This document shows, in pieces, positions 12,164 to 63,533 of a stretch of 64,000 nt of DNA. The stretch comes from an uncultured Candidatus Saccharibacteria bacterium (GTDB taxonomy: Bacteria > Patescibacteriota > Saccharimonadia > CAILAD01 > GCA-016700035): assembly GCA_964535385.1 (NCBI GenBank), contig CAZHSY010000002.1, positions 6,939 through 70,938 of the forward strand, given 5' to 3'. How positions within the stretch are numbered: the stretch's first letter is position 1; each line of letters starts with the position of its first letter. The notes under the pieces were generated by a model. The model did not search any database. It was not told the origin of the DNA and saw nothing but the letters and a program-made list of their open reading frames with translations. Both the position numbers and the translations under genes were made by a program.

Positions 12164-12196
12164 GTTACATGTTGTCAAGGGATAATCAGCTCCCGA

Positions 12197-21733: not shown

Positions 21734-21820
21734 CTGGTGCCAGAGGTGGGACTCGAACCCACACACAGTTGCCCGTACACGATTTTGAGTCGTGCGTGTC
21801 TACCAGTTCCACCACTCTGG
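21734..21820 (-). tRNA. tRNA-Leu (anticodon CAA), type II with long variable arm
   Basis: rc reads GCCAGAG..CTCAAAA (anticodon loop)..long variable arm..GGTTCGAGTCC..CTCTGGCACCA; the 7-bp acceptor stem pairs perfectly; CCA is encoded. Confidence 0.85.
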
Positions 21821-21890
21821 CGAGTGTGAAGTAAAGTAATCTGTTTTCAGATGTCAAACTGCCGATGTATTATAATACGGACAAGACATT

Positions 21891-23174: not shown

Positions 23175-23189
23175 GTACCTCCTTGATCT

Positions 23190-23325
23190 CCACGCGGCTT
23201 ACTTTGAGTGCACTGGCCGGCGTTTTTCAGACTTCAAAAATCCTCGTCGTACCTAAATACGCCTGTGGTTTTTGAAGCGATCAACCTTGGCCAGCACTAC
23301 CCAAAGATAGCCCGGTACTAGGTGG
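23190..23325. repeat. left copy of about 136-bp inverted repeat
   Basis: about 94% identical to the reverse complement of 26757-26892; contains an internal palindrome cttcaaaaa..tttttgaag. Confidence 0.75.
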
Positions 23326-23387
23326 AGGCGCGAGGGCGCTGGATGTAGCGGGTATTGGGAGTCTCACAATGTACTGCAGGCCTGGCC

Positions 23388-23577
23388 TGACTCGAAAACC
23401 AGTGCCCAACCACTCTCACAATGTACCCGGTCATTTTGAGTGAGCTCTAGGTGAGTTTTCTGATAGGAGCGGAAGAAGGCGTATATGATAATACGTCGAC
23501 TGAGCACCGCTGCAGAAAAGTCGCCTGGAGCCACTCTAAAATGGGCGGCTTTCAGGACTCGCCGACTAGCCCTTAGT
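23388..23577. repeat. dispersed intergenic element copy E2
   Basis: caggcctggcctg hairpin + gaaaaccagtgcccaaccac + ggagcggaagaaggcgtatatgataatacg core; flanked by the direct repeat tctcacaatgtac. Confidence 0.55.
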
Positions 23578-24699
23578 TTAGTTAACTAAACTAAGGGCAT
23601 ACTCAGGCCACCACTCGCCAGCGCTCGGCCCGCCATTACAAGCCCCGTCCGATTCGCCCGGGTACTTGACCCACAGCACCGCATCCAGTGCCCCCTGGCC
23701 AGTCACAGCCCGAGGCACTTCACCGATCTTGCGGCCGGTCGGATTACACCATTCAAGATTCGGCGCCGGACCAGCACCATTACGGCTGCTATCAACCACT
23801 ACATGCAGACCACCCGTTAACTGGCTGATTTGCTGACCATACTGACGTGACTCAGTAGTGGTTAAGAAATTCGAAATATTCAAAGCAATACCATGCAGGT
23901 GCTCTACCCCAACTTCTTTCAGTCTACTAGCGATCTCGGCCGCAGTGTGCCAGCGAGCGTTACCTGCATCGAGATAGACATAGTGGTTCGGCGAGCTTGT
24001 TAGGGTCGTGATCGCAGTACGTAAGATATTTACCCGCTCCGCCTTCTGAGCACCAGATAAACATTCCCAGCCAGCCAAGGCATCTGGCTCGAGCAAGAAT
24101 ACCGCCTTACTCCCCTGTGAAGCATTTTGGATGGCTTGAATCCAGCTTTGATAAGCCGCGGCCGATGATGCGCCGCCAGCTGAGTAGCTACCACAATCAC
24201 GTACCGGAATGTTATACAGCACAAAAACTGGTAACGCCCCTTGAGCCCGCATATTACTGAGCTCTTGGGTGGTGGCTGCTCCAATATTACTCTGCCAATC
24301 ACCCAGCCACACCGTGACTGGAGTCTGAGCGATTCTTCGCATGACAGCAGCGTCGGCAGCTCGAGTGCTCGACCACTCCGCTACCGTAACCTGGGCTGGA
24401 TTATCTGGATCCACAAAAAGCTTAGCACCCACAAATGGATTCGCCCGGGCAACAGCGGCTGGCTGGCTGGCCTGACCATGGACACTAGCAGGGGTCGCTA
24501 TTTCAGTCGGCGTCAACTGCGGTGCGGGCGTGGGAGTAGTCTGATTTGCCGCCAGGAGCTGTACTGAATTATTCGCGGCCCGCTTGCGAGCCAGCAATTC
24601 ATGCAAGCCAACCGCCCCATTCATCCCGCCCAGTACATATAGTACCGCCACCAGCCAGACCACAATGAGACTACGCCACGACCGAATATTCATCTTCAC
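23578..24699 (-). CDS. glycoside hydrolase family 6 (cellulase/cellobiohydrolase-type), secreted
   Basis: both GH6 signatures are present: VLYNIPVRDCGSYSAGG and VFLLEPDALAG; C-terminal VLWVKYPGESDG; N-terminal signal anchor. Confidence 0.85.
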   Translation of the reverse strand: MKMNIRSWRSLIVVWLVAVLYVLGGMNGAVGLHELLARKRAANNSVQLLAANQTTPTPAPQLTPTEIATPASVHGQASQPAAVARANPFVGAKLFVDPDNPAQVTVAEWSSTRAADAAVMRRIAQTPVTVWLGDWQSNIGAATTQELSNMRAQGALPVFVLYNIPVRDCGSYSAGGASSAAAYQSWIQAIQNASQGSKAVFLLEPDALAGWECLSGAQKAERVNILRTAITTLTSSPNHYVYLDAGNARWHTAAEIASRLKEVGVEHLHGIALNISNFLTTTESRQYGQQISQLTGGLHVVVDSSRNGAGPAPNLEWCNPTGRKIGEVPRAVTGQGALDAVLWVKYPGESDGACNGGPSAGEWWPEYALSLVN

Positions 24700-25280: not shown

Positions 25281-26108
25281 GTGCGAATGAATGTCTCACT
25301 CGTCTCCCCTCAGCCACCAGATCCGACGCTCGCCTTTGGACTCCTACCTCAGCCTAAGGCCCTCCCGATCGTTCAAGTGGTTGGCGGTAGTCCAGGCGGC
25401 TTAGCTAATCTCCACGGACTCTCGTCTTTTCTTGATGCGGGTCGTATCCGATCGCAGCTAATAGTGCCAATTACATCACTGCCGCTCCTCCCAACAGTAG
25501 CCCAAGGATTATCTGGCCCCAGCCTTCACCAGGCCACCAGTGACACCGATATCGGTATCGTTGGTCCTGGTCTTAAACTTACCAGTGACACGCAAATTAT
25601 CCTTGATAAATGGCTCCCTCAAGCTGGCCCGACTATTCTGACAGACGAGGTAGTTGGACTCCTCAAGATCAATTCAAGCCTCTTCGATGAGCGCAATGTA
25701 CACTGGCTCATAAGCCTACCTGGATTAGTAAAAATGGCCAGCTCAACCAATCGTAAAGCTCGCCTCACACCAGATGGTGGAGTGCATAATGTTGCCCGCA
25801 TTATGGCTGCACAAGCCATCCGAGCCGACTGGCTGGCTGTCTACAGCCATGACCGCGTGTACATCTGGCTCCCATCAGAAGAAATTCTCTTACACACCCC
25901 AATCGCCGCAGGCAATTCTGAGCAAGTGATCCGTAATGGTCTCATAACTCTCACTCTCAGCCTTGTATATCGCCGCCTCAGCGCCCTTAGTCTCGAAACA
26001 CGGTGGCAAGTGACCCTTTGGACTCTGCAACGCCTACAGGCCTCCTTGACGGCACATCAACAAGTAGCTGCCTTATCAAGCGCACTTGAAGCAGCTGCTC
26101 AAGAATAA
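25281..26108 (+). CDS. hypothetical protein
   Basis: 275 aa, co-oriented and 13 bp downstream of the previous ORF. Confidence 0.45.
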   Translation: MRMNVSLVSPQPPDPTLAFGLLPQPKALPIVQVVGGSPGGLANLHGLSSFLDAGRIRSQLIVPITSLPLLPTVAQGLSGPSLHQATSDTDIGIVGPGLKLTSDTQIILDKWLPQAGPTILTDEVVGLLKINSSLFDERNVHWLISLPGLVKMASSTNRKARLTPDGGVHNVARIMAAQAIRADWLAVYSHDRVYIWLPSEEILLHTPIAAGNSEQVIRNGLITLTLSLVYRRLSALSLETRWQVTLWTLQRLQASLTAHQQVAALSSALEAAAQE

Positions 26109-26756: not shown

Positions 26757-26892
26757 CCACCTAGTGCCGGGTTACTCTGGGTAGTGCTGGCCAAGGTTGA
26801 TCGCTTCAAAAACCACAGGCGTATTTAGGTACGACGAGGATTTTTGAAGTCTGAATAACGCCGGCCAGTGCACTCAAAGTAGACCGCGTAGG
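26757..26892. repeat. right copy of about 136-bp inverted repeat
   Basis: reverse complement of 23190-23325 with about 8 mismatches; abuts the xseB stop. Confidence 0.75.
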
Positions 26893-26894
26893 GA

Positions 26895-34649: not shown

Positions 34650-34840
34650 AGGCCTTGAAGCCAAGACCTGGCCTGACGGAGAAACCAGCGCCCAACCACC
34701 CCATGCTTGCGTCGAGTCATCTTTGGGTGATGCTGGTAAGTACTTATCGTTGAGGAGCACAGACAGGCGTATATAATTACGGTGATTGTGCACCATAAAC
34801 GAAAATACTTATCCAGCACTCCCAGAGTGGGCCGCCACTA
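34650..34840. repeat. dispersed intergenic element copy E3
   Basis: degenerate hairpin ccaggccttg-aag-ccaagacctgg + gagaaaccagcgcccaaccac + ggtgatgctggtaagta + gcgtatataattacggtg. Confidence 0.55.
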
Positions 34841-40274: not shown

Positions 40275-40284
40275 GCCGTGCGAT

Positions 40285-40318
40285 CAGGCCAGGCCTTGGC
40301 TCGCCAAGGCCTGGCCTG
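40285..40318. repeat. REP-like palindrome caggccaggccttgg-ctcg-ccaaggcctggcctg
   Basis: perfect 15-bp arms between the convergent murA and prfB. Confidence 0.8.
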
Positions 40319-40362
40319 CAACAACCATCGTGTCATCTTGAACTCGTTTCAGGATGACAGCT

Positions 40363-41445: not shown

Positions 41446-41478
41446 AAGTTTTCATTATACCGTACCTCGACAACGTTG

Positions 41479-41690
41479 CAGGCCAGGCCTTGGCTCACCA
41501 AGGCCTGGCCTGACGAGAAAAACAAACCCAGTGCTCGGCTACCCCACCTAGTACCGGGTCTTTTTGAGCGAGGTCCAGGTGGGGTTCTTTGCTAGAAGCG
41601 GAGGGAAGCGTATATGTAATACGGTGACTGAGCACCGGGGCAGAAACGCCACCTGGGGCCGCTCAAAATGGGCCGCATCGTGTAACAGAA
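41479..41690. repeat. dispersed intergenic element copy E4 (perfect hairpin + core)
   Basis: hairpin at 41479-41512, then gagaaaaacaaacccagtgctcgg, then agcggagggaagcgtatatgtaatacggtgactgagcacc. Confidence 0.55.
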
Positions 41691-41745: not shown

Positions 41746-42921
41746 TTATTTAACGATGTTTTTGAGGGCGTCTTTCAGACCCTTCCGGCTCTTCCGGTAG
41801 AAGTAACCAGCGTAGGTCAGGCCGCCTGTACCCATCAAACCAGCAACACCGGCTTCAACACCAGTCTGGGGTAGTGAAGGGGTTTCAGGAGTAGGGGTCA
41901 CAGTTGGAGTTGGCTTAACAGGAGTAGTTGGGGTAGGAGTTGGGGTAGTCTTACCAGCTACCGTGACTTTCGTCTGGGCAGTGTTAAAGTACTCACCCAT
42001 GCCCTGTGGCTTTACGACAGCAACGTTCTTGAAGGTGTAATCACCAGCTGGAAGGTTGTTGTTGATCTTAGCCTGGAACCACACAAAGCCGTTAGAACCA
42101 GCAGTGTAGTTACCAACATTAACGCCACCAGTAGTGACATTGTCAGAGTTGATCTTGATACCATTTGGGTTAGCAGCGTTCTTCAACATGGTCGTACCAG
42201 GCACATACGTAACATTAGCTGGCATATTGTCAGCGATAATGACGTTGTTCAGCGTGGTATTGCCTTCGTTTTTGAACGAGATCAGGTACTCGAGCGTGTC
42301 ACCAGCCTTGGCAGTGTTCTGGGTAACCCAGTCCTTCTGGCCAAGTACACGGACTTGCTTTGTGACTGATACAGCTGGAGTCTTTACTCGAGCTAGGACA
42401 GTTACGTTAGCCTCGAAGTTGAAGCAAGGCTTTTCGTTACCAAGCACGATACCACCGTTTACAACCTGGTCACTGATCTTATCAGTTACCCAGTTTGGAG
42501 CTTCGTTGGTACCAGTGTTGTGACGCCACTGAGCTGAGCCGGGAATGTATTCCAGCTGGCTCTGGTCGAGGGCGAGATTAACGTTTGCAGTGTCGACAAC
42601 GGTATTGCTGTTGTCAGAGCTGACCGTACCTTTTACAACTTGGGCTTTGCCAGCTGCAGTAGGAAGATCGATTTTTACTTTGAGGTTTTCGGCAACTTTA
42701 TTAGAGTTGGCTTCTTCTTTGTTGTGGTACCAGATTTGCACCTTGACCACTTCATCAGTTTTAGCACTGACAGACTTCTTGTATGTCGTATCACCGGCAG
42801 TTTGGTTAGCAACGGCGGTACGAGCTTCGATCGCAACTTGACCGGCAGCGGCACTTACAGCTGGCATAGCGATAAGGGCAGTAGCAACGGCGAGGTTACG
42901 AAGAGTAGTAGCAACTTTCAT
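41746..42921 (-). CDS. LPXTG-anchored surface protein with Ig-like/DUF11-type repeats
   Basis: signal peptide; C-terminal LPQTG + hydrophobic segment + RKSRKG tail. Confidence 0.7.
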   Translation of the reverse strand: MKVATTLRNLAVATALIAMPAVSAAAGQVAIEARTAVANQTAGDTTYKKSVSAKTDEVVKVQIWYHNKEEANSNKVAENLKVKIDLPTAAGKAQVVKGTVSSDNSNTVVDTANVNLALDQSQLEYIPGSAQWRHNTGTNEAPNWVTDKISDQVVNGGIVLGNEKPCFNFEANVTVLARVKTPAVSVTKQVRVLGQKDWVTQNTAKAGDTLEYLISFKNEGNTTLNNVIIADNMPANVTYVPGTTMLKNAANPNGIKINSDNVTTGGVNVGNYTAGSNGFVWFQAKINNNLPAGDYTFKNVAVVKPQGMGEYFNTAQTKVTVAGKTTPTPTPTTPVKPTPTVTPTPETPSLPQTGVEAGVAGLMGTGGLTYAGYFYRKSRKGLKDALKNIVK

Positions 42922-43130: not shown

Positions 43131-43177
43131 GCAGGTGAATAAAAGAGAAAACCCCGGAACGCATGGGTATGCGTTCC
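43131..43177 (-). terminator. rho-independent terminator for the high-GC island operon
   Basis: 13-bp stem ccccggaacgcat/atgcgttccgggg followed on the minus strand by TTTTCTCTTTTATT. Confidence 0.6.
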
Positions 43178-43206
43178 GGGGGAAAGTACCCGAACACCAG
43201 ATGGGA

Positions 43207-44241
43207 TCAAGGCGGCGGAGCCACCGTCCCATTGCTGGTCTGGCCAGCGGTGTTGGTGTTGTTGTCGGGGTTTGAGGCCCCGGCAGTTCCACCAGTACTG
43301 TTGCCGGACGGACCGGAGGTCTGACCCGAAGGGGTCGTCACTCCAGAACCCGTGCCGGTACCCGGGGTACCGTAGGTAGTCGGACGGTACGGATCAGCGC
43401 CCGCCTTGGTGGCGGCCGCATCAGCGTTCTGCTGATCAACCACCTTCTCGGCGTTACCAGGCACATAGCCCGGGGTGGGCGGTTGCGGGTTGGACTGGAC
43501 GGGGTCCAGTTCCGGACCTGAGTCCGGGCTTCCGCAGTACTCACCGGTCTGGCCAGCACACTTCTTCGGCTTGGCCGGTGGTACCGTGGTCGGCGTCGTA
43601 CCCGGAGGCACGGTGGGCTTTCCAGGCTTGGCCGGCTGACCGGGAGTGGGCTGACTGGGCTGCTCGGGAGCAGGTGTCGGCGGCTTGCCGATGGGATTGC
43701 CACAATGCGACAGAACCACCGGAGTACCATCACCCAGGGTCAGAGCGACTCGCACCTGCGAGCGCCCATCATCGAAGGCTTCACAGTTCCCCTCGCCCGC
43801 ACCGCGGGTGTTGGAGAAGCCGTTGACCTTGATGATCGGCAGCGCGGGGTCCATGGGGACACCCTTGCTGTCGAGGCCCTTGGCGGCCTGCTCGTCGCTA
43901 GCATTGGACACCAGCTTGACGCGCAGATCCTTGCCAGTGCGCTCAGCCGCAAGTGCGGCGTCGGCATCGGCCTTGGTGTGGGCTGTGCGCTGCTCGAAGC
44001 ACTGCCAGTAGCCGGCGTTGTCGCCGACCTTGGAGTACAACTCCTCCCAGGTTCCAGCGCCGCCCTTGATGACAGGCGGCTCCGGATCATGGGCACCGGT
44101 CAAGACGACCGGCGTCTCGGCAGCTGCGTCGACAGGATCGTCGACGAACCGCTGTACGATCGTGGGAACGATCAGCAACAGCGCTGCTGCAACCGCCACC
44201 AGCCAGAAGAAATTCTTCTGATTGAACTTGGGCGCGCTCAT
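43207..44241 (-). CDS. high-GC membrane-anchored Cys-containing, Pro/Gly/Thr-rich secreted protein, unknown function
   Basis: about 66% GC; AGAAGGAGG RBS; N-terminal TM, Cys-containing globular domain, PTPAPEQPSQPTPGQP linker, G/T/S-rich tail. Confidence 0.5.
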   Translation of the reverse strand: MSAPKFNQKNFFWLVAVAAALLLIVPTIVQRFVDDPVDAAAETPVVLTGAHDPEPPVIKGGAGTWEELYSKVGDNAGYWQCFEQRTAHTKADADAALAAERTGKDLRVKLVSNASDEQAAKGLDSKGVPMDPALPIIKVNGFSNTRGAGEGNCEAFDDGRSQVRVALTLGDGTPVVLSHCGNPIGKPPTPAPEQPSQPTPGQPAKPGKPTVPPGTTPTTVPPAKPKKCAGQTGEYCGSPDSGPELDPVQSNPQPPTPGYVPGNAEKVVDQQNADAAATKAGADPYRPTTYGTPGTGTGSGVTTPSGQTSGPSGNSTGGTAGASNPDNNTNTAGQTSNGTVAPPP

Positions 44242-44379
44242 GGCGGCCTCCTTCTGTGATCACCGCCGTAGGCGGGTGGATGTTCGGGTACGGGTTCTGA
44301 CGGCGATGTAATCGTCATCAGAATAATACCAGAAGTCAAAGTAGGTGTGATGGGGGCGAAATGCCCCCATCACGGTTGT

Positions 44380-45171
44380 TCAGTTCGACGCTCGAGCCGC
44401 GGCTCCGGCTGACACCGAGGTATCCGCCGGAGCCGGCTGGCCGGGCTGCCAGGGTGACTGGCGGACCGAAACCTGTTCAGCCGTGGGCTGTGCGTCAACG
44501 ACGGGTGTCGTTTCGACAACTGGCGACGGATCGTCACCAGTCTGTCCACCACGACGAGCCGAAGCTCGAGCGCTGGACACCGCCGTCGAGACGGCCTGCC
44601 GGTTGGACAGAACCATGCCAGCCACGAGGCCAACGATGGCCGCAACGATCAAGGTCCAGCACCACTGAATGTTGGTCGCAGTGCCAGGTCGAACGATCTC
44701 GATCACCACGTAGGTGACGAGACCAGCCAGCGCGGCCAGTGCCAGGGGTACCCAACTGTGGGCGTCCCGAAGCTCGTTGATCGCCGCCGCCGAAGCGTTG
44801 GCGGTGACCTCGACGCCCTCGACTCGATCACCCAGCTGGGTGAACTTGAGGTCGTGATCGTCGAGCCGCTGGCCGTGGGTGGCCACGGTGCTGCGCAGAT
44901 CGTGCAGCTCGCTGTCGAGCAGGACGATGCCGCGTTGCACTGAGGCGATCTCCCCCCTGAGAGAGTTGATCAAGGCCTCCGGCACGTCGGCGCTGATGCG
45001 CTGCTCCAGACGCCGCTTGAGCTCCTCGAGGCTGGCGCGTCGGATATCGCGGTCCCGTTCCAGGGTCGCGATGCGATCCTGGTGGGACTGCAGGATGCCC
45101 GTGTGGGCTGTGACCTGACGCGCCAAGCGCGTCGCGGTCGGGTTGGTCATGATCGGTGGTCGGGGCTGCAT
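44380..45171 (-). CDS. high-GC coiled-coil two-TM membrane protein, unknown function
   Basis: about 65% GC; GGAGG RBS; about 130-aa coiled-coil then two hydrophobic helices. Confidence 0.5.
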   Translation of the reverse strand: MQPRPPIMTNPTATRLARQVTAHTGILQSHQDRIATLERDRDIRRASLEELKRRLEQRISADVPEALINSLRGEIASVQRGIVLLDSELHDLRSTVATHGQRLDDHDLKFTQLGDRVEGVEVTANASAAAINELRDAHSWVPLALAALAGLVTYVVIEIVRPGTATNIQWCWTLIVAAIVGLVAGMVLSNRQAVSTAVSSARASARRGGQTGDDPSPVVETTPVVDAQPTAEQVSVRQSPWQPGQPAPADTSVSAGAAARASN

Positions 45172-45238
45172 GGCCCCTCCTCTCTTTGTCTTTTCGTCGA
45201 ACTGTGGGGTTCGCGTCCGGTTTTGGACGTCTGGCGCA

Positions 45239-45267
45239 TATTACCATAAATCGATGAAAAAATCAAG
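45239..45267 (-). promoter_or_regulatory. promoter TTGATTTTTT-N7-TTTATGGTAATAT (near-identical to the 1229-1257 promoter)
   Basis: minus-strand TTGATT (rc of 45262-45267), 17-nt spacer, TAATAT (rc of 45239-45244) with extended TGg; 23 of 29 positions identical to the promoter of the other high-GC gene. Confidence 0.45.
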
Positions 45268-45341
45268 TACTTACCTAGCACGAGCGCCTTGCAACAGACT
45301 ACCCGGTAACAGGCCTGATCTGCAGAAGTTGGTCCTTGCAT

Positions 45342-45369
45342 AAAAAAGACCCCCTGTTACCAGGGGGTC
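45342..45369. terminator. bidirectional terminator hairpin
   Basis: aaaaaa + gaccccctg-ttac-cagggggtc. Confidence 0.6.
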
Positions 45370-45386
45370 AAGAGAAAATCGTCGGT

Positions 45387-46688
45387 TCAGACGAACTCCT
45401 CTTCGAGAACGGACAGGATCTCCTCGATGGAGAGCTCGCCAGCATCGGCCAATTGCTTGGCACGAGCACTGATCCGCTCCGATTCATCAACTTCATCAGT
45501 CAACTCATCGTCAAAGTCCTCCACCGGATCTGGTGTCGGATCTGGGATGGCCGCTTCGGACAAAGCCTGACTGCGCTGGTCTTGCTCCACCTTCTTCAGG
45601 AGGAACGAGAACTTTGGCCAGCTGAAGCTGGTCAGCGCATCCTCGACGGACTGCTCCGAGCGCAGCAGTTGCACCGATCCGCGGTAGTACCAGGCTAGCT
45701 GATTCAGCTCAGGATTCTTCTTGACCTCCACGATGGTGGAGCCAATCAGGTCCTGGTGCCTCCGACCAAGCAAGAGCTGTTCGCTCTCGGTCTCCGACAA
45801 ACCAAACAACCCATACACCCCGTAACCAACTTCGATCACAGCTTCCAGCAACTGAGTAAAGGCCGCACTACGATTGGAGTCCGTGGTGTCACGGGCCCGA
45901 CTCAGAGCCTCAGTCAGACTGAGACTCAGTTCGAGCTGACGTGCTTGGATTGCCTGAGACGAGTCCAGTGGGAGTGGTGCGTCGACTTCGGCGACCACAT
46001 CGTCCTGATCGGTGCTGTCAGCCAGCGAGGAACCTTCCGACGATGACTCGTCATCCGACTCCTCATCGGCTTCCAAAAGCTGAACCTCGTAAGTCACCGG
46101 CGGCTCCGAAGAGTCATCGACGGCTCCATCGGTCACGATCTCCCGCATGACCAGACTGACCACCCGTGGGTCAGCCAGAGTTGCCCAAGAGCCACCTTCC
46201 GGCAACACCACGCCAAGACGCTCATAGCGCTCAGCGATGGCTATCGAAGCTTGTTCCCAAGCTTCGTCATGTGCGGCCAAGCCAGTCGAGACCAACAGAT
46301 AAGCCAACGCACCGAAGGTGCGAGCTGGTGGATCAGCCTCCAGCAGATCACTGACGCGTTGGCATAGCTCCTTGCTGGCCACAGCTTCGTCACTGAGCTG
46401 CTCAAGTCGAAACTCTGGCGTACCCAGTTCCCGACACAGCTCCCTAACGAAATCCAGAGCATCGTCGCGTAGAACTACACCAGCCTCTGTCAGGTCGTCC
46501 ATGACGTCCTTGAGTCGCTGAGGCTGCTTCTTGCGAGGTGGATTCTGAGAGGTCACAGGGTCCTCACTTTCTCCGGCGCTGCCGGTGTCGTGGCCAGTGG
46601 TGGCCGATGACTGCTTGTACTCCAGACAGTCTAGCGGGATATCTGCCAGACTCCGGATAACTTCATGGTTTTGATGACTCGTACCCAT
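45387..46688 (-). CDS. high-GC acidic soluble protein, unknown function
   Basis: 433 aa, strongly acidic (D/E-rich), no TM; AAAGG RBS; AT-rich upstream region. Confidence 0.5.
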   Translation of the reverse strand: MGTSHQNHEVIRSLADIPLDCLEYKQSSATTGHDTGSAGESEDPVTSQNPPRKKQPQRLKDVMDDLTEAGVVLRDDALDFVRELCRELGTPEFRLEQLSDEAVASKELCQRVSDLLEADPPARTFGALAYLLVSTGLAAHDEAWEQASIAIAERYERLGVVLPEGGSWATLADPRVVSLVMREIVTDGAVDDSSEPPVTYEVQLLEADEESDDESSSEGSSLADSTDQDDVVAEVDAPLPLDSSQAIQARQLELSLSLTEALSRARDTTDSNRSAAFTQLLEAVIEVGYGVYGLFGLSETESEQLLLGRRHQDLIGSTIVEVKKNPELNQLAWYYRGSVQLLRSEQSVEDALTSFSWPKFSFLLKKVEQDQRSQALSEAAIPDPTPDPVEDFDDELTDEVDESERISARAKQLADAGELSIEEILSVLEEEFV

Positions 46689-46801
46689 GTCTGCCTTTCT
46701 GGGGTAAAGGTGCGTAAAACAAAGCTGACCTTACTATTTTTTACGAGTAAAGTCAAACTAGGTTTGTTCTAAATTGAACTAAAAAATGGCATACTTGCCT
46801 A

Positions 46802-47131
46802 CTATTGTGTCGAGGCCATCTGACGAGCCTGGGCCAGCACCGCTTGCTGATCAGCTACGAGCTGGTCGGCAGCTTCGCGAGCAGTGACTTCAACAAGCTG
46901 GTCGAAATCCGGCACCAGTTGCCGCAAGCGAGCGTCGACCTGATCGCTTTGATTAGACTCGACCAGCTGATCAATTTCGGCCATAGCGGCTGGACCGACT
47001 TGCTGACTGACTTTGGCCATAACCCGGACCATGGTTAGATCAGCTAGCTGTTCGGCTAACTGCTGCTTGTCGGTTTCGCTGGCTGAGGCCATACCAAGTC
47101 GAGTAAATATATCTGGTTGTTGTGGGTTCAT
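46802..47131 (-). CDS. small helical hypothetical protein
   Basis: 109 aa, Q/A/D-rich helical; 12 bp downstream of the large coiled-coil gene. Confidence 0.4.
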   Translation of the reverse strand: MNPQQPDIFTRLGMASASETDKQQLAEQLADLTMVRVMAKVSQQVGPAAMAEIDQLVESNQSDQVDARLRQLVPDFDQLVEVTAREAADQLVADQQAVLAQARQMASTQ

Positions 47132-47143
47132 ACGTACTTCCTC

Positions 47144-49918
47144 CTAGGCTACACTGTTAGGGATATTATAAATTTGCATAATACGATTCATATCTACGCC
47201 ATTGCGCACTCCATTTGCGATACCGTCCATATTCTCAGCCAACTTATCGTTGCCAATGGTTCGTGCTCCGGCCCCAATAATCGTATTAAGTCTGTGTAAT
47301 TGGTCCAACGACATGCCCTTTGAAGCAGCATTATAAACTTGATCAAAATGTTCCGAACCGGCTTCTGCGGCAGCCTTAACTGCTGGGCTAGCGGCTGCAT
47401 GCATGGTCTCCCAATTCTGCACCATATTACCGGGGTTACGGCTAGCCATTCCCGCCCAGCGGTCAAAGTTGGGATCGTATTCGGCAGGTGGAGCCGTTGG
47501 TGGTTTCGGATCAACCGGCGGCTTGGGATTGCTGCCCCCACCGCCATGTTCGTGACGCATCCATTGGCCGATCAAAACAGCAGCCGTGCCAGTAGCAGCA
47601 CCAATCACCTTGGCACGGCGATTTGATTTAGCGTCGCTCGATACCCGCTCTTGCTGATCGCTTAATAAGCTACCAGCTACTTCAGCTGAAGCCCCAGCTT
47701 CACCACGCAAGACCGCCATAATACGATCTGGCCCCATCGGGTGGCGACGCATGAAGTTCTCAATATCGGCTTGGTAACGTTCCTGCATTGGGCCTTCGGC
47801 CACTTGTCCTTGCAGGATATTAACACCAGCATCTAGGCTCGCCTGGTCAGCACTATCAAGTGTATTGTACATGTTTTCAGTGGCTCGTCGGTCGGCGCGG
47901 TCGGCGCGCCAGCCATGCAAGCTATTCGTCACGCCCTCGCCAGCCATGTAGCCACCGACACCTCGCATACCAACTGCCGCCAAGCCTGCCGCTGTGCCTA
48001 GTGGCCCGGCCAAAGCGAATCCGGCTACACCTAGACCGATACCAATAGCCGCACGAGTCTTGGGGTACTTACGCCACTTATTCTTAAATTTCTGCGATAG
48101 CTTACCTTCTTTCAGCTCACTTTGGGCCTCCTCGATCCGGGTTCGAACAATCGCCAAGTCAATTGTCATAGCATTGGCCACATTAATCCGCATAGCTTCG
48201 GTGCTAACTCGAGCTTCTGCCTTACGCTGGTCACACTCGGCCATACCAGCCCGGTGCTCAGCAATATGCCGCTGCAAGCGACGAATTTGAACCTGCTTCA
48301 CGCCATCGGGCGAGTCACTGGCTTCAACTCGAGCAATCTCCTCTTCGTAACCATCAATCTCTGACTGAAAGCCCGCCTTAGCCTGATCAATCTCAGCTGG
48401 CAGCTGATCGAGTTGCGCCAAACGATAAGCCCAAGCACCGAGATACTCATTGTGTAATTGATCGAGCTTGCCCTGTTCTTGAACTAGGGTTTCAGCTCGT
48501 TTTTCACGACGCAGGTTCCATAACTTCTCGCGATTCTCTTTGGCTTCAGCTACAGCTCTGATCTGGTCATCCAGACCTTCGCGCATGCCCTCGGCTTCAG
48601 ATAGTACATCGACTTGACTCGGCACTTTTGGAATCTCACCCAAAATGTGACCAGGTATTTCGACAACTTCCCCGACCGCTTCTGGAGTGATCCCAGGGCC
48701 CGGCTCGGTGGGCTCGCCGGCTTCGGGTGGCTCCGGCGAATCTTCTGGCGGTCGGCCTTCCACACCAAAATCATCCAGTGCCCACGGTTCATTACCCATA
48801 CCACCAGTCCCAACGCGCTCAGCATCGCCTGGTTCAGCCGGCCGAACATTAAGCTGTGACTCAGTGACGCCACCGGTAGCTGATGGCACTTCGGCAGCCG
48901 AAGCAGCTGGACGACCGTAAAAGGCCTCGATGTCATTTTCATTCACTATCCGACGCAGATCATCATCTTGATGCACCCGATCAAGAAACTCTGCCGGTTT
49001 TACAGGTTCGGGCTTGGCCGGCTCAGAGTCACCTGGTCGATCATAAAAATTGCCAGCTTCGCCGCTACTTAGCATATCTCTAAGCTGATCGCGCGTTGAG
49101 CTATCAAGCTTATCCCAAGGATCTTCAGTAGCCTGCGCACCTTCACCTGATTCTCGCATTGATTGATTTCCATTATTATCTTGAGTTATATCATAACTGC
49201 TTACGCTTCGGCCTGGCAAGCTCGGGGTTTGCGCCAGACTCCGTCTCAGATCAAGTTGCTTCTGAGTTGGGCCGAGTTCCTCGGGACGGTCGAAGCTCAG
49301 AGCCTCAGGGTCTGTCCGTCGCTCTTCCTCCAAACGCCAATCATCCGGATCGAAGTACCGACTCTCGCGCAATCGCTGCATATCCTGACCAGTGTGTTTA
49401 TGGCTACTAGATTTTGTCGATGTAGCCTGCGCCTCAACCGGCCTCGAGAGTACCTGGCGTCGCCAAAAGTCTTTCGGCACTGGCACTCGGCCAGCTTGAA
49501 CGAGTGTGGCTAATTCATCCAGCGCCAAGTACATAGCCTGCTCACCTACTTCAGGGTTCTCACGCTGCAATTGCCGACGCGCCTCATCGTAGCCAGTCAG
49601 CGCCACCAGTGCTTGCTTGATCTCACCGACTGGCTTCTCCTGCCAACGCCACTGGCCCTTAGGCGTATCCTTATCAATGGCCTGCACATCACCCTGCATG
49701 CCCGCCTCGAGCTCAGCCTTTTCAGCCTGTAACCCGGCCAAAAATGCCGGCAGGCCAATCTCTACTCCATCCGTATCGGCCTGTTCGCCATTAGCAATAC
49801 GCACCTCGACATCGCGGATATCACGCTCTACACGCCTAAGCTGCCGCGCCTGCTGTGACCAGCCAGATATCCCGTCAGACTGCTCGCCATGATAACCAAC
49901 TTCATGATTCTCTTTCAT
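47144..49918 (-). CDS. large coiled-coil membrane protein, unknown function
   Basis: start set at MKENHEV (49918) because the longer ORF overlaps the secA 3' end; about 600-aa charged coiled-coil, Gly-rich TM segment, about 280-aa C-terminal domain. Confidence 0.5.
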   Translation of the reverse strand: MKENHEVGYHGEQSDGISGWSQQARQLRRVERDIRDVEVRIANGEQADTDGVEIGLPAFLAGLQAEKAELEAGMQGDVQAIDKDTPKGQWRWQEKPVGEIKQALVALTGYDEARRQLQRENPEVGEQAMYLALDELATLVQAGRVPVPKDFWRRQVLSRPVEAQATSTKSSSHKHTGQDMQRLRESRYFDPDDWRLEEERRTDPEALSFDRPEELGPTQKQLDLRRSLAQTPSLPGRSVSSYDITQDNNGNQSMRESGEGAQATEDPWDKLDSSTRDQLRDMLSSGEAGNFYDRPGDSEPAKPEPVKPAEFLDRVHQDDDLRRIVNENDIEAFYGRPAASAAEVPSATGGVTESQLNVRPAEPGDAERVGTGGMGNEPWALDDFGVEGRPPEDSPEPPEAGEPTEPGPGITPEAVGEVVEIPGHILGEIPKVPSQVDVLSEAEGMREGLDDQIRAVAEAKENREKLWNLRREKRAETLVQEQGKLDQLHNEYLGAWAYRLAQLDQLPAEIDQAKAGFQSEIDGYEEEIARVEASDSPDGVKQVQIRRLQRHIAEHRAGMAECDQRKAEARVSTEAMRINVANAMTIDLAIVRTRIEEAQSELKEGKLSQKFKNKWRKYPKTRAAIGIGLGVAGFALAGPLGTAAGLAAVGMRGVGGYMAGEGVTNSLHGWRADRADRRATENMYNTLDSADQASLDAGVNILQGQVAEGPMQERYQADIENFMRRHPMGPDRIMAVLRGEAGASAEVAGSLLSDQQERVSSDAKSNRRAKVIGAATGTAAVLIGQWMRHEHGGGGSNPKPPVDPKPPTAPPAEYDPNFDRWAGMASRNPGNMVQNWETMHAAASPAVKAAAEAGSEHFDQVYNAASKGMSLDQLHRLNTIIGAGARTIGNDKLAENMDGIANGVRNGVDMNRIMQIYNIPNSVA

Positions 49919-49985
49919 TCCTCTTATGATAACAGAGTTCACTGGCGACAAAAACCGGCAACTCGTAGGAGGCTCAGTAGGACGC

Positions 49986-52619
49986 CTAGCGACGCTTCTT
50001 TTTCTTCTTCGGCTTTTTCTTAGTTGCCGTACTCGTCCGACGGATCGGGCCGCTACCGACGTGCGCACCCCTCTCGGCCGCTTTCTTGGCTCGCCGCACC
50101 TCAGCTTCGACTGTCGGCTTACCAGTCTCATCAGTGCCGATTGCCACAGCTTGCTGAGCCGCCTGCGTGATCTCAGTAGATATTTGTTGAACTGGCTGAG
50201 CTTCAAGCTCGACTTTAACCTTAAAGAGCGCATGCGTAATATCCGAATCGATCCGTCGCTCCAGCTCCTTAAACATCTGATAAGCCTCTTGCTTGTACTC
50301 TACGAGTGGATCCCGCTGACCATAACCACGTAAGCGAATACCGTCACGCATGTGCTCCATAGCTTCGAGATGCTCCAACCAAGCCGAATCGATGGTCTTG
50401 AGCGAAACCAGGCGCTCGATCACCATCACGCCCTCATCGCCAAATTCCATATAACGATTACGATAGACCTCTTCGGTAATATCCATAAACTGCTTAATGA
50501 TAGGCTCGGGATCAAGAATTTTTTGTTCCTTCTCCCAGTCCTTTGGCAATGGAATGACATCACGGACTCGTTCGGCCAACACGTCGATGTCAAGAATCTG
50601 GGTCTGATCATCAATAGCTGATTGCGCCAATACCTGATACTCTTCTTTAAAGAGCGGTATCAGATCATCCTTAATGGAGTCCTTCTTTAGAATCGATCGA
50701 CGACGACTATAGATAATCTCACGGTGCTGGTTCATGACGTCATCGTAATCCACCAAGTGTTTGCGAATATCGAAGTTATGACCTTCGACCTTCTTCTGAG
50801 CCGACTCAAGACTGCGGGAGACCATTTTGTTCTCGATCGGCGTATCCTCGGAGAGCCCAAGAGCCTCCATCATGCCAGCAATCCGTTCCGAGCCAAAGAT
50901 CCGCATCAGATCATCATCGAGTGAGACATAGAACTGCGAGCTCCCAGGGTCACCCTGACGACCAGCCCGACCGCGCAGCTGGTTATCAATCCGGCGTGAT
51001 TCATGGCGCTCGGTCCCAATCACGTGCAAGCCACCGAGTTCAGTTACACCTTCACCGAGGATGATATCGGTACCACGACCAGCAATGTTAGTGGCCAGTG
51101 TAACGGCCTCAGCTTGACCAGCCCGAGAAATAATCTCAGCTTCAGCCTCATTATTTTTAGCGTTGAGCACCGTGTGTTTAACGCCAGATTGAGACAACAA
51201 TCGCGACAGGAGCTCATTCTTCTCAATTGAGACCGTTCCGAGGAGAACCGGCTGCCCCTTCTCATGACGCTCCTTCACCTCGGCCACCACGGCCTGATAC
51301 TTACCCAGCTCCGTCTTATAGATACGATCCGCCAAATCCTCGCGGATCATTGGCTTATTGGTTGGGATTGTCACCACATCCAATTCATAAATCTTGCCAA
51401 ATTCCTCAGACTCAGTCACAGCTGTACCAGTCATGCCGGCTAGTTTCGCGTAGAGACGAAAGAGATTCTGGAATGAGATCGTAGCTAGTGTCTGACTTTC
51501 CTGCTGAATCTGAACCCCTTCCTTGGCCTCGATGGCTTGATGGAGACCTTCTGAATAGCGACGGCCTGGCAAGAGACGGCCGGTGAACTCATCGACGATC
51601 ACAATCTCGCCATCCTCAGCCACGACGTAATCGCGATCTTTCAGGAAGAGCGCCTGCGCCTTGAGAGCGGCTTCAATGTGATGCACGTCTTCGATCATGC
51701 CAGCTTCATAGACATTGTCGACCCCAAGCGCCTTCTCAACCTTCGTAATGCCGGCCTCAGTCATACTGACCGCTTTATCTTTCTCATCAAGCGTGTAGTC
51801 ATCCCCTGACTTGAGACTGCGAGCGATCTTGGCAAAATCATAGTACCGACCAGTTGGCTTAGAGTGCGGCTGCGAGATAATCAGCGGCGTACGAGCTTCA
51901 TCGATCAGGATTGAGTCGACTTCATCGATGATGGCGTAGTGAAGTTTGCGTTGTACCATCTGGTCCAGATGCTGCACCATATTATCGCGTAAGTAGTCGA
52001 AACCAAATTCATTATTAGTGCCATAGGTAATATCGGCGGCGTAAGCTTCCTTACGACCCACTGGGCGAAGATGCTGCAAGCGCTCGTCGCTATGAGCTTC
52101 ATCACTATAATCCGGGTCATACAAGAATGACGAGTCGTGCATGATGACCGCCGTTGAGAGACCCAGGAAGTGATAAACCTTACCCATCCAGCCGGCGTGG
52201 AGTCGAGCTAAGTAGTCGTTGACGGTTACCAAATGCGCCCCCTCTCCCTCGAGTGCGTTAAGATAGAGTGCCGGAGTAGCCACCAAGGTCTTACCTTCAC
52301 CAGTTTTCATTTCCGCAATGCTGCCTTGATGCAGGACAACCGCACCAATCAGCTGCACATCAAAGTGGCGCATACCAAGCTGTCGCCGGCTAGCCTCACG
52401 CATCACGGCAAAAGCGCGATCTAGCAGATCATTCAGCTTCTTGCCATCGGCCAATTGCTTCTTAAAAGTTGCCGTCTCAGCCTGCAGCTGCTTATCGGTC
52501 AATTTTTTAATTTCGGATTCGAGTTTGTTGATAGCCTCAACCCGCGCGCGGGCCTTGCGGACCTCACGCTCATTCGGATCACCCAATAATTTCTTTAAAA
52601 CATTGACCATCGTATGCAT
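49986..52619 (-). CDS. secA: preprotein translocase ATPase SecA
   Basis: 877 aa; DEAD-like motor motifs; C-terminal basic tail [11 protein letters not shown]. Confidence 0.92.
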
Positions 52620-59478: not shown

Positions 59479-60296
59479 TACTGCTTCACCACAAAGACAA
59501 TCTCTAGACGGTCAAAGTCCAGCGGCGAGCGTACCGTCGCGGCCTGGAAGATTTCGTTATCACTCTTGTCGACCGATTCCGTGCGACCGATTAGGATGCC
59601 TTTTGGTATACGATCCGAGCCAGCCGTTAATACATTTTCACCTTGATCGATAGTCTCATTCTGAGCGATCTGTTCCAAGCGCAAGCCAGCCCCAATCTCA
59701 CCAGTCAGAATCCCGCGGGCACGGCCTGACTGGCCGATGGCTTGTACGCGAAACTCCGGATCTGACACCAACCCCACCGTAGCTGTCGCCTGATCAACTC
59801 GCTCAATCTTACCGACGAGCACGCCAGAACTGACCACCGCTTGGCCAACCTGCACACCATCACGACTACCACGGTTAATAACAAACGTCCGACGGACATT
59901 ATCGGGACTATACGACACCACATTGGCGCCAATCAAATCAAGCGGCAGGTCTTTATGGAAGCCCAGCTGCTCGCGCAAAAGGCTATTCTCATGCTCAACC
60001 TCGCGGAGGCGAGTAACCTCAGCTTGAGCCGACTGCAAGTCGCGCTCCAACCGTTGATTGTCCTGGCCGAGATGCCCTAGTGAGCCAAAGGTATGAAAGA
60101 AACCACCGACCGATCGAGTAGTGTTTGAGAGTACTTGACCGACCGGTTGAGCTAGCCCGTCCAGCACGATAGTCAGCGGTCGCCAGAAACCACCCAGCTG
60201 CAAAAGTAAAATCATACTCACCAGAACAACCGCCGCGACTGCCACCCATCGGCCACGTTTCTTACCTCCAGAGCGGGCGTCAATCGCTCGAGCCAC
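59478..60296 (-). CDS. mreC: rod shape-determining protein MreC
   Basis: N-terminal TM, coiled-coil, beta-rich C-terminal domains; adjacent to mreB. Confidence 0.75.
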   Translation of the reverse strand: MARAIDARSGGKKRGRWVAVAAVVLVSMILLLQLGGFWRPLTIVLDGLAQPVGQVLSNTTRSVGGFFHTFGSLGHLGQDNQRLERDLQSAQAEVTRLREVEHENSLLREQLGFHKDLPLDLIGANVVSYSPDNVRRTFVINRGSRDGVQVGQAVVSSGVLVGKIERVDQATATVGLVSDPEFRVQAIGQSGRARGILTGEIGAGLRLEQIAQNETIDQGENVLTAGSDRIPKGILIGRTESVDKSDNEIFQAATVRSPLDFDRLEIVFVVKQ

Positions 60297-61369
60297 TAGT
60301 GTGGAGTCTTCTCGTACTGAGTTGTCACCAGCACGTCCTTAAGTTCATCAATATCCTCAAGTACCGCACCCGTACCACGAGCTACTGCTGTTAACGGATC
60401 ATCGGCAATGACCACGGGCATTTTCGTCTGCTGAGCGAGCAATTGATCTAAGCCTCGCAAGAGTGCGCCACCCCCAGCCAAATAAACTCCTTTATCCATG
60501 ATATCGGCGATGAGCTCTGGTGGTGTCTCTTCAATAGTGTCTTTGACGGCGTTAACGATCGCCCGAACTGACTTCGACAGAGCTGCCCGGACTTGGTCCG
60601 AATTAATAATCACTTCCTTAGGTAGGCCCGTCACAATATCACGACCACGAATCGGTGCCTCCAAGAGATGCTCCAGCTCATGAGCCGAACCAACCGAAAT
60701 TTTAATTGCCTCAGCCGTCCGCTCGCCGACCTGTAAATTAAATTCTTCTTTAGCATAGGCCATGATGTCTTCGGTCAGCTCATCACCAGCGATACGAATA
60801 CTGCGACTGGCCACAATCCCACCCAGCGAAATGACAGCCACCTCACTCGTGCCACCGCCGATATCCACCACCATACTACCAGCCGCATCGTGAACCGGCA
60901 GATTTGAACCAACGGCCGCAGCCATCGGTTCTTCGATCAAAAAAGCCTGCCGTGCACCGGCGTTGGTTGCGGCGTCTTCCACGGCTCGCTTCTCGACCTC
61001 AGTGACACCAGAAGGGATGCCGATCACGACCCGTGGCCGTGGCAGGAGCGCAAAATGCTGCTTTTGGACTTTATCCAAGAAATATTTCAGCATTTGTTCG
61101 GTGACTTCGAAGTCTGACACCACCCCATCGACCAGTGGTCGACTAGCGACAATGTTAGCTGGCGTCTTGCCAACCATGCGCTTAGCCTCATCGCCAATCG
61201 CCAGAATCTGACGAGTCTTATTGTTGATCGCTACCACACTTGGCTCATCGATAATAATGCCTTTGCCGCGTAAATACACCAAAGTATTAGCCGTCCCCAA
61301 GTCGATACCTATATCGTGAGACAGCCGGCCGAAGACATCTGGCAATCGTAGCTGTGAGAATTTCATGTT
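60296..61369 (-). CDS. mreB: rod shape-determining protein MreB
   Basis: start placed at MKFSQLRL with AGAGG RBS; IGIDLGTANT, DIGGGTSEVA and LAGGGALL motifs. Confidence 0.88.
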   Translation of the reverse strand, partial: NMKFSQLRLPDVFGRLSHDIGIDLGTANTLVYLRGKGIIIDEPSVVAINNKTRQILAIGDEAKRMVGKTPANIVASRPLVDGVVSDFEVTEQMLKYFLDKVQKQHFALLPRPRVVIGIPSGVTEVEKRAVEDAATNAGARQAFLIEEPMAAAVGSNLPVHDAAGSMVVDIGGGTSEVAVISLGGIVASRSIRIAGDELTEDIMAYAKEEFNLQVGERTAEAIKISVGSAHELEHLLEAPIRGRDIVTGLPKEVIINSDQVRAALSKSVRAIVNAVKDTIEETPPELIADIMDKGVYLAGGGALLRGLDQLLAQQTKMPVVIADDPLTAVARGTGAVLEDIDELKDVLVTTQYEKTPH

Positions 61370-61538
61370 AACCTCTAGTTTACACGACTTTCGCTCTTCC
61401 CTCACCACCTTCAGGCCACATCCGCCTATCTGATGATAGTTTCTCGTTCCCAGCGTAGCCACAGCAACATCTATTCCAGACAAGCTCAATGCCCGCTACA
61501 TCAAGCTGTAACCTGTTGATGAGATTAACTCAAGTTGC

Positions 61539-63485: not shown

Positions 63486-63490
63486 GGTTG

Positions 63491-63524
63491 CAGGCCAGGC
63501 CTTGGCTAACCAAGGCCTGGCCTG
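63491..63524. repeat. REP-like palindrome caggccaggccttgg-ctaa-ccaaggcctggcctg
   Basis: perfect 15-bp arms. Confidence 0.8.
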
Positions 63525-63533
63525 ATCGCATCC

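Follow-up and report, generated by a model that had tools for sequence, protein, structure and literature searches.

In a 64-kb stretch of the genome of an uncultured Candidatus Saccharibacteria bacterium (64,000 nucleotides of contig CAZHSY010000002.1, the whole of which is called the window here), two adjacent genes, g1 and g2, and to a lesser degree a third, g3, differ sharply in base composition from the genes around them. The initial annotation of this DNA had read the three as an acquisition from a high-GC actinobacterial-type donor or a phage, followed by domestication. This reading fails, as orthologues of all three genes lie at the same position with the same GC anomaly in related genomes, and the locus is not what remains of DNA taken up from a high-GC donor. 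The explanation favoured here, which is given about an even chance of being right, is that these are diversifying envelope genes of vertical descent, and that selection keeps their messenger RNAs (mRNAs) GC-rich and strongly base-paired. The bolder claim that nucleotide composition itself is the selected trait, with two mRNAs that have stayed extremely rich in GC and in base pairs over hundreds of millions of years as their proteins diversified and swapped heads, is made tentatively and falls well short of that chance. The genes are the following, with GC3 denoting the GC content at third codon positions:

43207–44241, minus strand: g1, 344 aa, GC 65.0%, GC3 0.733
44380–45171, minus strand: g2, 263 aa, GC 66.4%, GC3 0.769
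45387–46688, minus strand: g3, 433 aa, GC 57.5%, GC3 0.631

Composition, conservation and folding of the g2–g1 pair

The window as a whole has a GC content of 51.3%, and its 44 other open reading frames (ORFs), which served as the background, have 51.0 ± 3.2% GC and a GC3 of 0.521 ± 0.049. Against this background, windowed composition gave a sharp and large step in GC and GC3 at g1 and g2 (z of about 4 to 5; about 4.3 for g1 and 5.1 for g2) and a modest one at g3 (z of about 2), the GC3 of which equals that of the pilin-like genes at 4934–6873. The sharp three-gene island of about 65% GC described at first is therefore real for g1 and g2 and overstated for g3. That the locus is an assembly chimera or other artefact was ruled out because identical junctions were found in the independent Logan, ENA and NCBI assemblies.

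The trio is present as a unit within a conserved block, and the whole block is syntenic in six further species-level lineages, at eight loci (L007, L008/L009/L010, L011, L012, L013/L014 and L015); the g2–g1 pair was also found in loci of GTDB species. The shared order is hpf, secA, a protein of 900–1600 aa, a DUF5663 protein of ~110 aa, g3, g2, g1, an LPXTG protein with DUF11/DUF7619, prfB, murA, ftsE, ftsX, two CHAP (PcsB-like) hydrolases, ctpB and pyrG. The genes are part of a lineage-specific block of six, which interrupts the conserved hpf–secA–prfB–murA–ftsEX cell-envelope neighbourhood, and the window in its entirety is of this kind, with murA, ftsEX, two PcsB-like CHAP proteins, ctpB, a sortase, Wzy and glycosyltransferases.

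The compositional anomaly travels with the genes. In the window and five relatives, g2 and g1 have 65–69% GC and a GC3 of 0.73–0.91, compared with 0.36–0.63 for the neighbours and 0.55–0.75 for g3, and in all 23 species-level genomes that carry the g2–g1 pair the GC3 of both genes exceeds the local background (means of 0.65 for g1 and 0.69 for g2 vs 0.40; Wilcoxon p = 2.4e-7). Across these genomes the GC3 of g1 and that of g2 are correlated with r = 0.91, and with the background with r = 0.67. The spacers of the window had suggested that the anomaly is strictly confined to the coding sequences, a suggestion that was softened because the g2–g1 spacer, most of which is untranslated region (UTR), is GC-elevated in 22 of 22 orthologous loci (mean 0.49 vs 0.34 for other spacers).

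At the protein level, the pair diverges 5–10 times faster than its neighbours. Amino-acid identity to the window is 74–94% for SecA, 71–87% for RF2 and 75–95% for the LPXTG protein, as compared with 48–56% for g1, 23–67% for g2 and 25–48% for g3. In the closest relative, L007, the SecA of which is 94% identical, the flanking housekeeping genes are saturated at synonymous sites (proportion of synonymous differences, pS, 0.65–0.82), and the GC3 of g1 and g2 is near 0.75 in both genomes. Since the flanking synonymous sites are saturated and GC3 has been kept all the same, the composition of a donor would have decayed long since, and some force maintains the GC content of g1 and g2. Against L007, the nonsynonymous divergence (dN) of the two genes is 0.26–0.40, vs 0.01–0.08 for most flanking genes, with a dN/dS of 0.35–0.49, whereas the synonymous divergence (dS) of g2, g1 and the LPXTG gene is only 0.56–0.83 in a setting where most flanks are at 1.5 or above, or saturated.

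The codon usage of g1 and g2 follows the same tendency: A-ending codons are almost abolished (AAA 0, CAA 0.06, CCA 0.05 vs 0.42) and C- and G-ending codons dominate (AAG 100%, TTC 100%, ATC 95%, CAG 94%, TAC 86%, AAC 79%), while GGT, GCT and GAT persist. Amino-acid use is shifted toward G/A/P and away from F/Y/M/I/K. Since the avoidance of A-ending codons extends to all four-fold boxes, and since the amino acids and the spacer are GC-shifted too, the pattern is one of general GC pressure rather than of tRNA-matched (anticodon) choice.

The folding of the native mRNAs was then compared with that of global synonymous shuffles, of local synonymous shuffles (within 25-codon blocks) and of dinucleotide shuffles, which gave the following z-scores:

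g2 of the window: global −4.5, 25-codon blocks −5.8, dinucleotide −8.8
g1 of the window: global −6.6, 25-codon blocks −3.3, dinucleotide −8.6
prfB: global +0.3
murA: 25-codon blocks −0.7, dinucleotide −0.8
ftsX: 25-codon blocks +0.7, dinucleotide +0.2

Values near zero under both synonymous shuffles were likewise obtained for mreB, the ORF at 14115, a GH6 gene and the DUF5663-like gene; the g3 mRNA gave −7.7 (global) and −2.9 (local). Five orthologues had z-scores of −3.2 to −9.3 under the global synonymous shuffle, and in seven distant orthologues the mean z was −4.3 for g1 and −3.1 for g2, compared with −0.74 for 22 control genes (Mann–Whitney p = 1.6e-5 and 7.8e-3). A natural control is provided by locus L029, where a g1 paralogue of head type B (see below) with no g2 beside it has a GC3 of 0.42, which is that of its background, and a z of +0.14; the amino-acid sequence of the family thus forces neither the high GC3 nor the folding.

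A pilin-like type IV gene with an N-terminal methylation motif and the two ORFs that follow it (4934–8288) have the next highest GC3 after g1 and g2, 0.57–0.63, and the mRNA of the pilin-like gene gave z-scores of −4.65 (global) and −1.8 (local); surface-protein genes may share the GC3 and folding tendency in a weaker form. An overlapping or antisense gene was considered as the cause of the high GC3 and rejected, as the stop-free runs in alternative frames are like those of synonymous shuffles, except for a modest excess in frame +3 of g2. In 24 of 28 orthologues the stop-free run in this frame exceeds that of synonymous shuffles (on average 0.48 of the gene length vs 0.34), which may be due to codon context and not to an overlapping gene.

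Separate transcription signals accompany each gene:

43152–43181, minus strand: intrinsic terminator of g1, 13-bp stem and T-run (scan and sequence)
44247–44255, minus strand: ribosome binding site (RBS) of g1, AGAAGGAGG, read from the sequence
44347–44373, minus strand: GC-rich 11-bp hairpin without T-run, immediately after the g2 stop in the g2–g1 spacer
45238–45266, minus strand: promoter-like TTGATT-17-TAATAT upstream of g2, 8 of 12 consensus matches, not reported by the scan
45348–45369, minus strand: intrinsic terminator of g3 (scan)

Most of the signals given in the initial annotation were recovered: both terminators, after g1 (43181–43152) and after g3 (45369–45348), by the terminator scan, and the RBSs AGAAGGAGG and GAGGAGG by reading the sequence. 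The promoter is present as a sequence, although with its 8 of 12 consensus positions it remains under the scan threshold. The spacers, which had been called AT-rich, are not markedly so, with GC contents of 0.42, 0.56 and 0.50 as against 0.457 ± 0.066 elsewhere in the window; the g2–g1 spacer has 0.56, and in the 285 bp that separate the g1 stop from the LPXTG gene the composition is back to background at 0.42.

A predicted modular surface protein and its membrane neighbour

The three proteins had been described correctly from the start, g1 as having a transmembrane (TM) anchor, a Cys-containing domain, a Pro-rich linker and a G/T/S tail, g2 as a coiled coil with two TM helices and g3 as very acidic. 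That none of them belongs to a recognised family was borne out as well, the remote homology searches being negative or yielding coiled-coil noise, with g2 weakly XhlA-like. The layout of g1 comprises an N-terminal TM anchor, a variable head, a Pro-rich stalk, a conserved Cys-loop (consensus KCxGQxGxYCG[ST]PDSGPE in the family alignment A1) and a G/T/S-rich tail. The N-terminus is basic and followed by one TM helix, and the predicted topology is probably N-in with the remainder exported, i.e., that of a type-II membrane-anchored protein. No match to g1 was found in Pfam, PHROG, NCBIfam, PADLOC or the PDB. A sortase-anchored LPXTG protein was considered and rejected: the C-terminal end, ...GQTSNGTVAPPP, has no hydrophobic segment, and the LPQTG motif belongs to the neighbouring gene at 41746–42921. 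Two parts of the gene behave differently in comparisons:

43591–44134, minus strand: head cassette of g1, type A, without nucleotide similarity to the allele of the closest relative L007 (type B)
43207–43590, minus strand: conserved C-terminal module of g1, with the stalk end, the Cys-loop and the low-complexity G/T/S tail ending ...GQTSNGTVAPPP

The C-terminal module is the best-conserved part of alignment A1. By blastn, positions 45488–44135 (72%) and 43590–43141 (82%) of the window align to L007, and the head between them (44134–43591) does not, though both of its flanks within g1 do; positions 44135–43735 align instead to the allele of the distant locus L012, with 69%. Since the head type of the window differs from that of its nearest relative, g1 is a mosaic gene, the head of which has been exchanged as a cassette between Saccharibacteria lineages. 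Lateral exchange is limited to this cassette, which matches another Saccharibacteria allele.

At least three head types (A, B and C) occur in the g1 family. Type A is represented by the window and seven other representative proteins (eight in alignment A6), type B by ~60 representatives, including L007, and type C by six (P0051, P0066, P0069, P0093, P0095 and P0099); the profiles of A and B match over 38 columns only, with a probability of 94.7%. The head of the commoner type B was modelled confidently; this model matched no known fold, and a BFVD fold search gave no real match. The paralogue at L029 (9824–10825; also at L030), of type B, adjoins a 738-aa multi-TM protein and lies outside the secA–prfB block, without g2. 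A role of g1 or g2 as the target of a diversity-generating retroelement was rejected, as there is no g1 or g2 repeat in the 64-kb window and no reverse transcriptase domain among the scanned ORFs.

In g2, an N-terminal coiled coil (~residues 20–135) is followed by two TM helices (~140–160 and ~170–195) and a Pro/Ala/Ser-rich tail of ~70 aa. Its orthologues share the architecture only, with a mean column identity of 20% (alignment A3) and the TM pairs kept. Because there is no signal peptide, and two TM helices are followed by a basic stretch after the second, the coil is probably cytoplasmic. The g2 protein matches phrog_1193 over residues 91–190 (E = 1.2e-8), as do 7 of 25 orthologues (best E = 1e-9), and it matches Pfam XhlA (PF10779) with 16.4 bits, below the gathering threshold of 34.7 bits; three of the 25 orthologues also match XhlA below threshold. 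The best PDB match of the g2 profile is the archaeal S-layer anchor SlaB (8QOX chain B, E = 3e-8), over the coiled coil and the next TM helix, a match that looks to be driven by heptad composition.

As in the XhlA-like phage lysis-associated proteins (PF10779; PHROG 1193, "hemolysin"), the coiled coil of g2 leads directly into a TM helix. XhlA, however, has ~70–90 aa with a single C-terminal TM helix and belongs to a prophage lysis cassette, whereas g2 has about three times that length, with an additional TM helix and an extended Pro/Ala-rich tail, and occupies a conserved chromosomal position in the whole phylum with no holin or endolysin beside it; there were no PHROG lysis matches among the neighbours of g2 and no phage genes nearby. 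SlaB likewise combines a coiled coil with a TM helix, but its coil is extracellular and its single TM helix C-terminal, while g2 has two TM helices and a coil that is probably cytoplasmic; the likeness is one of sequence and looks to be due to the composition of the heptads, and no S-layer partner was identified. With the modular, cassette-swapping surface proteins of Gram-positive bacteria, g1 shares a variable head, a PT-rich stalk, a conserved terminal module, a raised dN/dS and mosaic alleles. Unlike those proteins (of the LPXTG/sortase, choline or LysM type), it is anchored by an N-terminal TM helix, and its conserved module is C-terminal and non-hydrophobic.

The third protein, g3, has 21% D+E and 8% K+R and no TM segment; it is syntenic yet extremely divergent, and no family or PDB match was found in Pfam, PHROG, NCBIfam, PADLOC or PDB searches.

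Transfer, recombination and selection

The word-indexed protein search returned, for g2 and for g3, only the query itself and one relative each; for g1 it returned twelve proteins, among them one labelled as a Candidatus Saccharibacteria metagenome-assembled genome (MAG). An exhaustive profile search of 1.84 billion representatives with the twelve g1 sequences gave 96 representative proteins, mostly of 300–370 aa; among these the source was checked for P0018, which is from Saccharibacteria/Patescibacteria. A scan for the g1-family motif in one genome per GTDB species (185,579 species genomes) found 28 loci, the titles of which name Candidatus Saccharibacteria in 22 cases, Patescibacteria in 2 and unclassified bacterium MAGs in 4, and an actinobacterium in none; all 28 are Saccharibacteria/Patescibacteria. 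As these searches, word-indexed and exhaustive, together with the 185,579 species genomes, yielded no homologue outside Saccharibacteria/Patescibacteria, an actinobacterial donor was rejected. A phage or prophage origin was rejected, too, because tblastn against 50,697 phage records found no relatives of g1 or g2, IMG/VR viral contigs had no match to the type-A or type-B profiles, and the BFVD fold search gave no real match.

Neither does the locus bear the marks of mobility. There are no flanking direct repeats around g1–g3; the sole tRNA of the window lies at 21735–21821, and the neighbours of the genes are secA, prfB and envelope genes. Among the features of a genomic island, deviant composition is present and patchy presence, donor homologues, mobility signatures and amelioration are all absent. 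The locus thus resembles horizontally acquired islands in its abrupt step of GC, GC3 and codon usage relative to its neighbours, and differs from them in that position and anomaly are conserved over deep divergence, without mobility genes, donor homologues or amelioration. Together with the homologues of similar GC found at conserved positions in relatives, the restriction of every detectable homologue to Saccharibacteria/Patescibacteria, the lack of phage or viral relatives and the lack of a flanking mobility signature led to the acquisition proposal being given up. The further suggestion of a novel envelope, interaction or defence module stood in part: the proteins are uncharacterised envelope proteins without a Pfam, NCBIfam or PDB family, and the variable exposed head suggests interaction, but defence is unsupported. 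For g2, PADLOC gave no more than coiled-coil noise (E above 1e-3), and g1, g3 and two further proteins of the block, the DUF5663-like one and that of 924 aa, had no match at all; an anti-phage defence system was rejected on these grounds.

What, then, accounts for the composition? A recent horizontal acquisition by this genome, or an assembly chimera, would explain the sharp compositional step and is effectively excluded, because the same genes, place and anomaly recur in 23 species-level genomes, the junctions are identical in independent assemblies, there is no integrase, tRNA target or flanking repeat, and the searches gave no homologues in a donor lineage or phage. It is improbable, if less so, that the pair entered the common ancestor from a high-GC organism, e.g., an actinobacterial host, and has retained its composition since. 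In codon usage the pair resembles actinobacteria of moderately high GC, secreted proteins of actinobacteria often have Pro/Thr-rich stalks, and cultivated Saccharibacteria live on Actinobacteria; yet no homologue was found outside Saccharibacteria/Patescibacteria in the searches run, and the paralogue elsewhere (L029) has background composition. Moreover, as synonymous sites are saturated between the closest genomes, retention would still need an active maintaining force, so that an ancient transfer collapses into either gene conversion or translational selection. Translational selection, by which g1 and g2 would be very highly expressed, with codons adapted to the tRNA pool and the GC3 as a by-product, is given a similarly small probability. 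It would be in keeping with the nearly absolute use of C-ending codons in two-fold pyrimidine boxes, the preference for AAG and CAG, the strong RBS, own promoter-like site and terminator, and the reduced synonymous divergence, but not with the avoidance of A-ending codons in every four-fold box and the shift of amino acids and spacer toward GC, nor with the ordinary GC3 of hpf, greA and mreB of the same regions; small-genome, slow-growing episymbionts are, in addition, expected to show weak translational selection.

The main rival is a recombination hot spot with GC-biased gene conversion, an explanation that is unlikely and still clearly more probable than the preceding ones. Here a surface-antigen locus would be exchanged often between Saccharibacteria lineages, and the repair of heteroduplexes would drive weakly constrained sites (third positions, spacers and residues in disordered regions) to G or C. 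The swap of the head cassette with its sharp boundaries is direct evidence of intragenic recombination, and the dS between the two closest genomes, which is lower in g2, g1 and the LPXTG gene (0.56–0.83) than in most flanks, the elevated g2–g1 spacer in 22 of 22 loci, the shift of amino acids to GC-rich codons with a raised dN/dS, and the co-variation of the GC3 of g1 and g2 all agree with it. Gene conversion does not, however, predict that native sequences fold much more stably than composition-matched synonymous shuffles; the LPXTG gene next to g1 has a low dS as well, but an ordinary GC3 (0.49); GC is back to background in the spacer between g1 and that gene; and the reported effect of gene conversion on GC3 in bacteria amounts to a few percent, not to +0.25 to +0.45.

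Under the favoured explanation of vertical inheritance with selection on the mRNAs, g2 and g1, with g3 as a weaker third member, would be Saccharibacteria-specific envelope genes. Anchored by its N-terminal helix, g1 would expose a variable, disulfide-bonded head to the exterior on a stalk rich in proline; as a surface protein it may face partners, hosts or phages and be subject to diversifying selection. The g2 protein may form a membrane hairpin, its coiled coil in the cytoplasm, and act together with g1, as their joint variation in GC3 (r = 0.91) would suggest. Selection would act on the nucleic acid itself and preserve GC-rich mRNAs that are highly base-paired and for this reason stable. 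With a strong RBS and a hairpin or terminator of its own, each gene would stand as an independent unit, in keeping with abundant envelope proteins, and the selection would plausibly be for mRNA stability and a high output of abundant surface components.

Several observations weigh against this explanation. The elevation of the g2–g1 spacer fits a regional process such as biased gene conversion as well as it fits transcribed UTRs. Two of the 22 control genes also have a z below −3.5, and the z of g2 is near zero in three of the seven distant genomes. RNAalifold, applied to the one alignable g1 segment in six sequences, found no compensatory changes (covariation term +4.75), and perfect short hairpins are not clearly enriched, so that the support is one of bulk foldability and not of a defined structure; as Rfam had nothing above threshold either, a specific conserved RNA element was rejected. 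The window has no ribosomal-protein or EF-Tu genes as a codon reference for high expression, and the high abundance of g1 and g2 is a prediction, as are the functions of the proteins. The model of the window's own type-A allele of g1 is poor (pLDDT 43.7).

The protein families are undescribed, and the locus is of the hypervariable surface-protein kind, with an unusual property at the nucleic-acid level. As in known cases of gene-specific GC3 enrichment, which are linked to expression, mRNA stability or GC-biased conversion, an elevated GC3 goes together with stabler predicted folding in a genome of moderate GC; the difference lies in its size (+0.2 to +0.45 GC3), in its confinement to a single pair of genes and in its persistence at the same syntenic position throughout a phylum. 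From a literature check that was not exhaustive, we know of no described equivalent of a phylum-conserved, gene-specific GC3 excess coupled to mRNA folding, and nothing in the literature on Saccharibacteria GC content and horizontal gene transfer (HGT), S-layer and abundant proteins, DUF5663 or transcriptomes maps to g1–g3.

The case is a clean and well-controlled one of the classic foreign-island signature being produced by vertically inherited genes, with abrupt steps in GC, GC3 and codon usage next to native-looking regulatory signals, and composition-based HGT calls in Patescibacteria genomes will wrongly flag the locus. The GC3 of two genes is actively held at 0.65–0.9 in genomes of which the rest is at 0.3–0.5, and whether structured-mRNA selection or biased conversion is at work here bears on the long-running question of what drives bacterial GC content. 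To this question the locus offers natural replicates (at least 23 lineages) and a natural negative control, the paralogue without the anomaly; genetic tools now exist for cultivated Saccharibacteria, for which natural transformation has been shown. The g1 and g2 proteins are candidates for components of the poorly understood Saccharibacteria cell surface. One of them, g1, has an exchangeable head of no known fold and a fast-evolving gene beside the cell-wall and division machinery, and such a molecule would be expected at the interface with host bacteria or phages. Should the composition prove to be selected, the locus would be a module dedicated to the contact with hosts or phages, its protein fold would be new and its control at the RNA level unusual, by extreme mRNA stability or by regulated unfolding, and it would be a textbook counter-example to the composition-based detection of horizontal transfer.

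Neighbouring genes and other features of the window

The remaining three genes of the block are the following:

41746–42921, minus strand: LPQTG-anchored DUF11/DUF7619 ("CLIPPER") surface protein, last gene of the block, normal GC
46802–47131, minus strand: DUF5663-like protein, 109 aa, second gene of the block
47144–49918, minus strand: fast-evolving 924-aa protein, first gene of the block, directly after secA

The last-named protein corresponds to a mechanical ORF of 1029 aa (47144–50233) that overlaps the end of secA; gene calls of the same genome start at 49918 and give 924 aa. It diverges as fast as g1–g3 (26–59% identity), yet its GC3 is normal or low (0.36–0.51). The LPXTG gene at 41746–42921 has a dS of 0.56 relative to its L007 counterpart (11509–12690), vs 1.5 or above for most flanking genes, and in two relatives the folding of its mRNA is stabler than that of global synonymous shuffles (z of about −4.1 and −4.5). 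These findings may reflect either a recent recombination spanning g2 to the LPXTG gene or a synonymous constraint.

Elsewhere in the window, a dispersed palindromic element of ~40 nt, GCAGGCCAGGCCTTGGCTCACCAAGGCCTGGCCTGA, lies in intergenic spacers at 40281–40319, 41475–41513 and 63487–63525, including both sides of prfB, with related copies at 1835–1960, 23378–23429 and 34664–34715; in appearance it is REP- or MITE-like, and it may also serve to terminate transcription in both directions. Two 120-nt inverted repeats (23187–23306 and 26775–26894, 95% complementary) bracket ~3.5 kb with a GH6 glycoside hydrolase gene (23578–24699, 55% GC) and an unannotated ORF (25281–26108), and as a mobile or acquired cassette this segment is more plausible than the g1–g3 locus. 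An IS1595-family transposase with a zinc ribbon and a DDE domain (11442–12143) is situated in a stretch of lower GC (43–45%) at 9–12 kb, near three small ORFs without family (8415–8996, 9123–9713 and 10502–10993). There are two mreB paralogues (18946–19974 and 60296–61489) with nucleotide stretches that are 74–78% identical, the second being followed by mreC and a PBP2-type transpeptidase, and a 499-aa ORF (14115–15614) has Gly-rich internal repeats of 33–36 nt, an unusual distribution of GC over the codon positions (GC1 0.67, GC2 0.56 and GC3 0.39 at first, second and third positions), and a C-terminal DUF4367.

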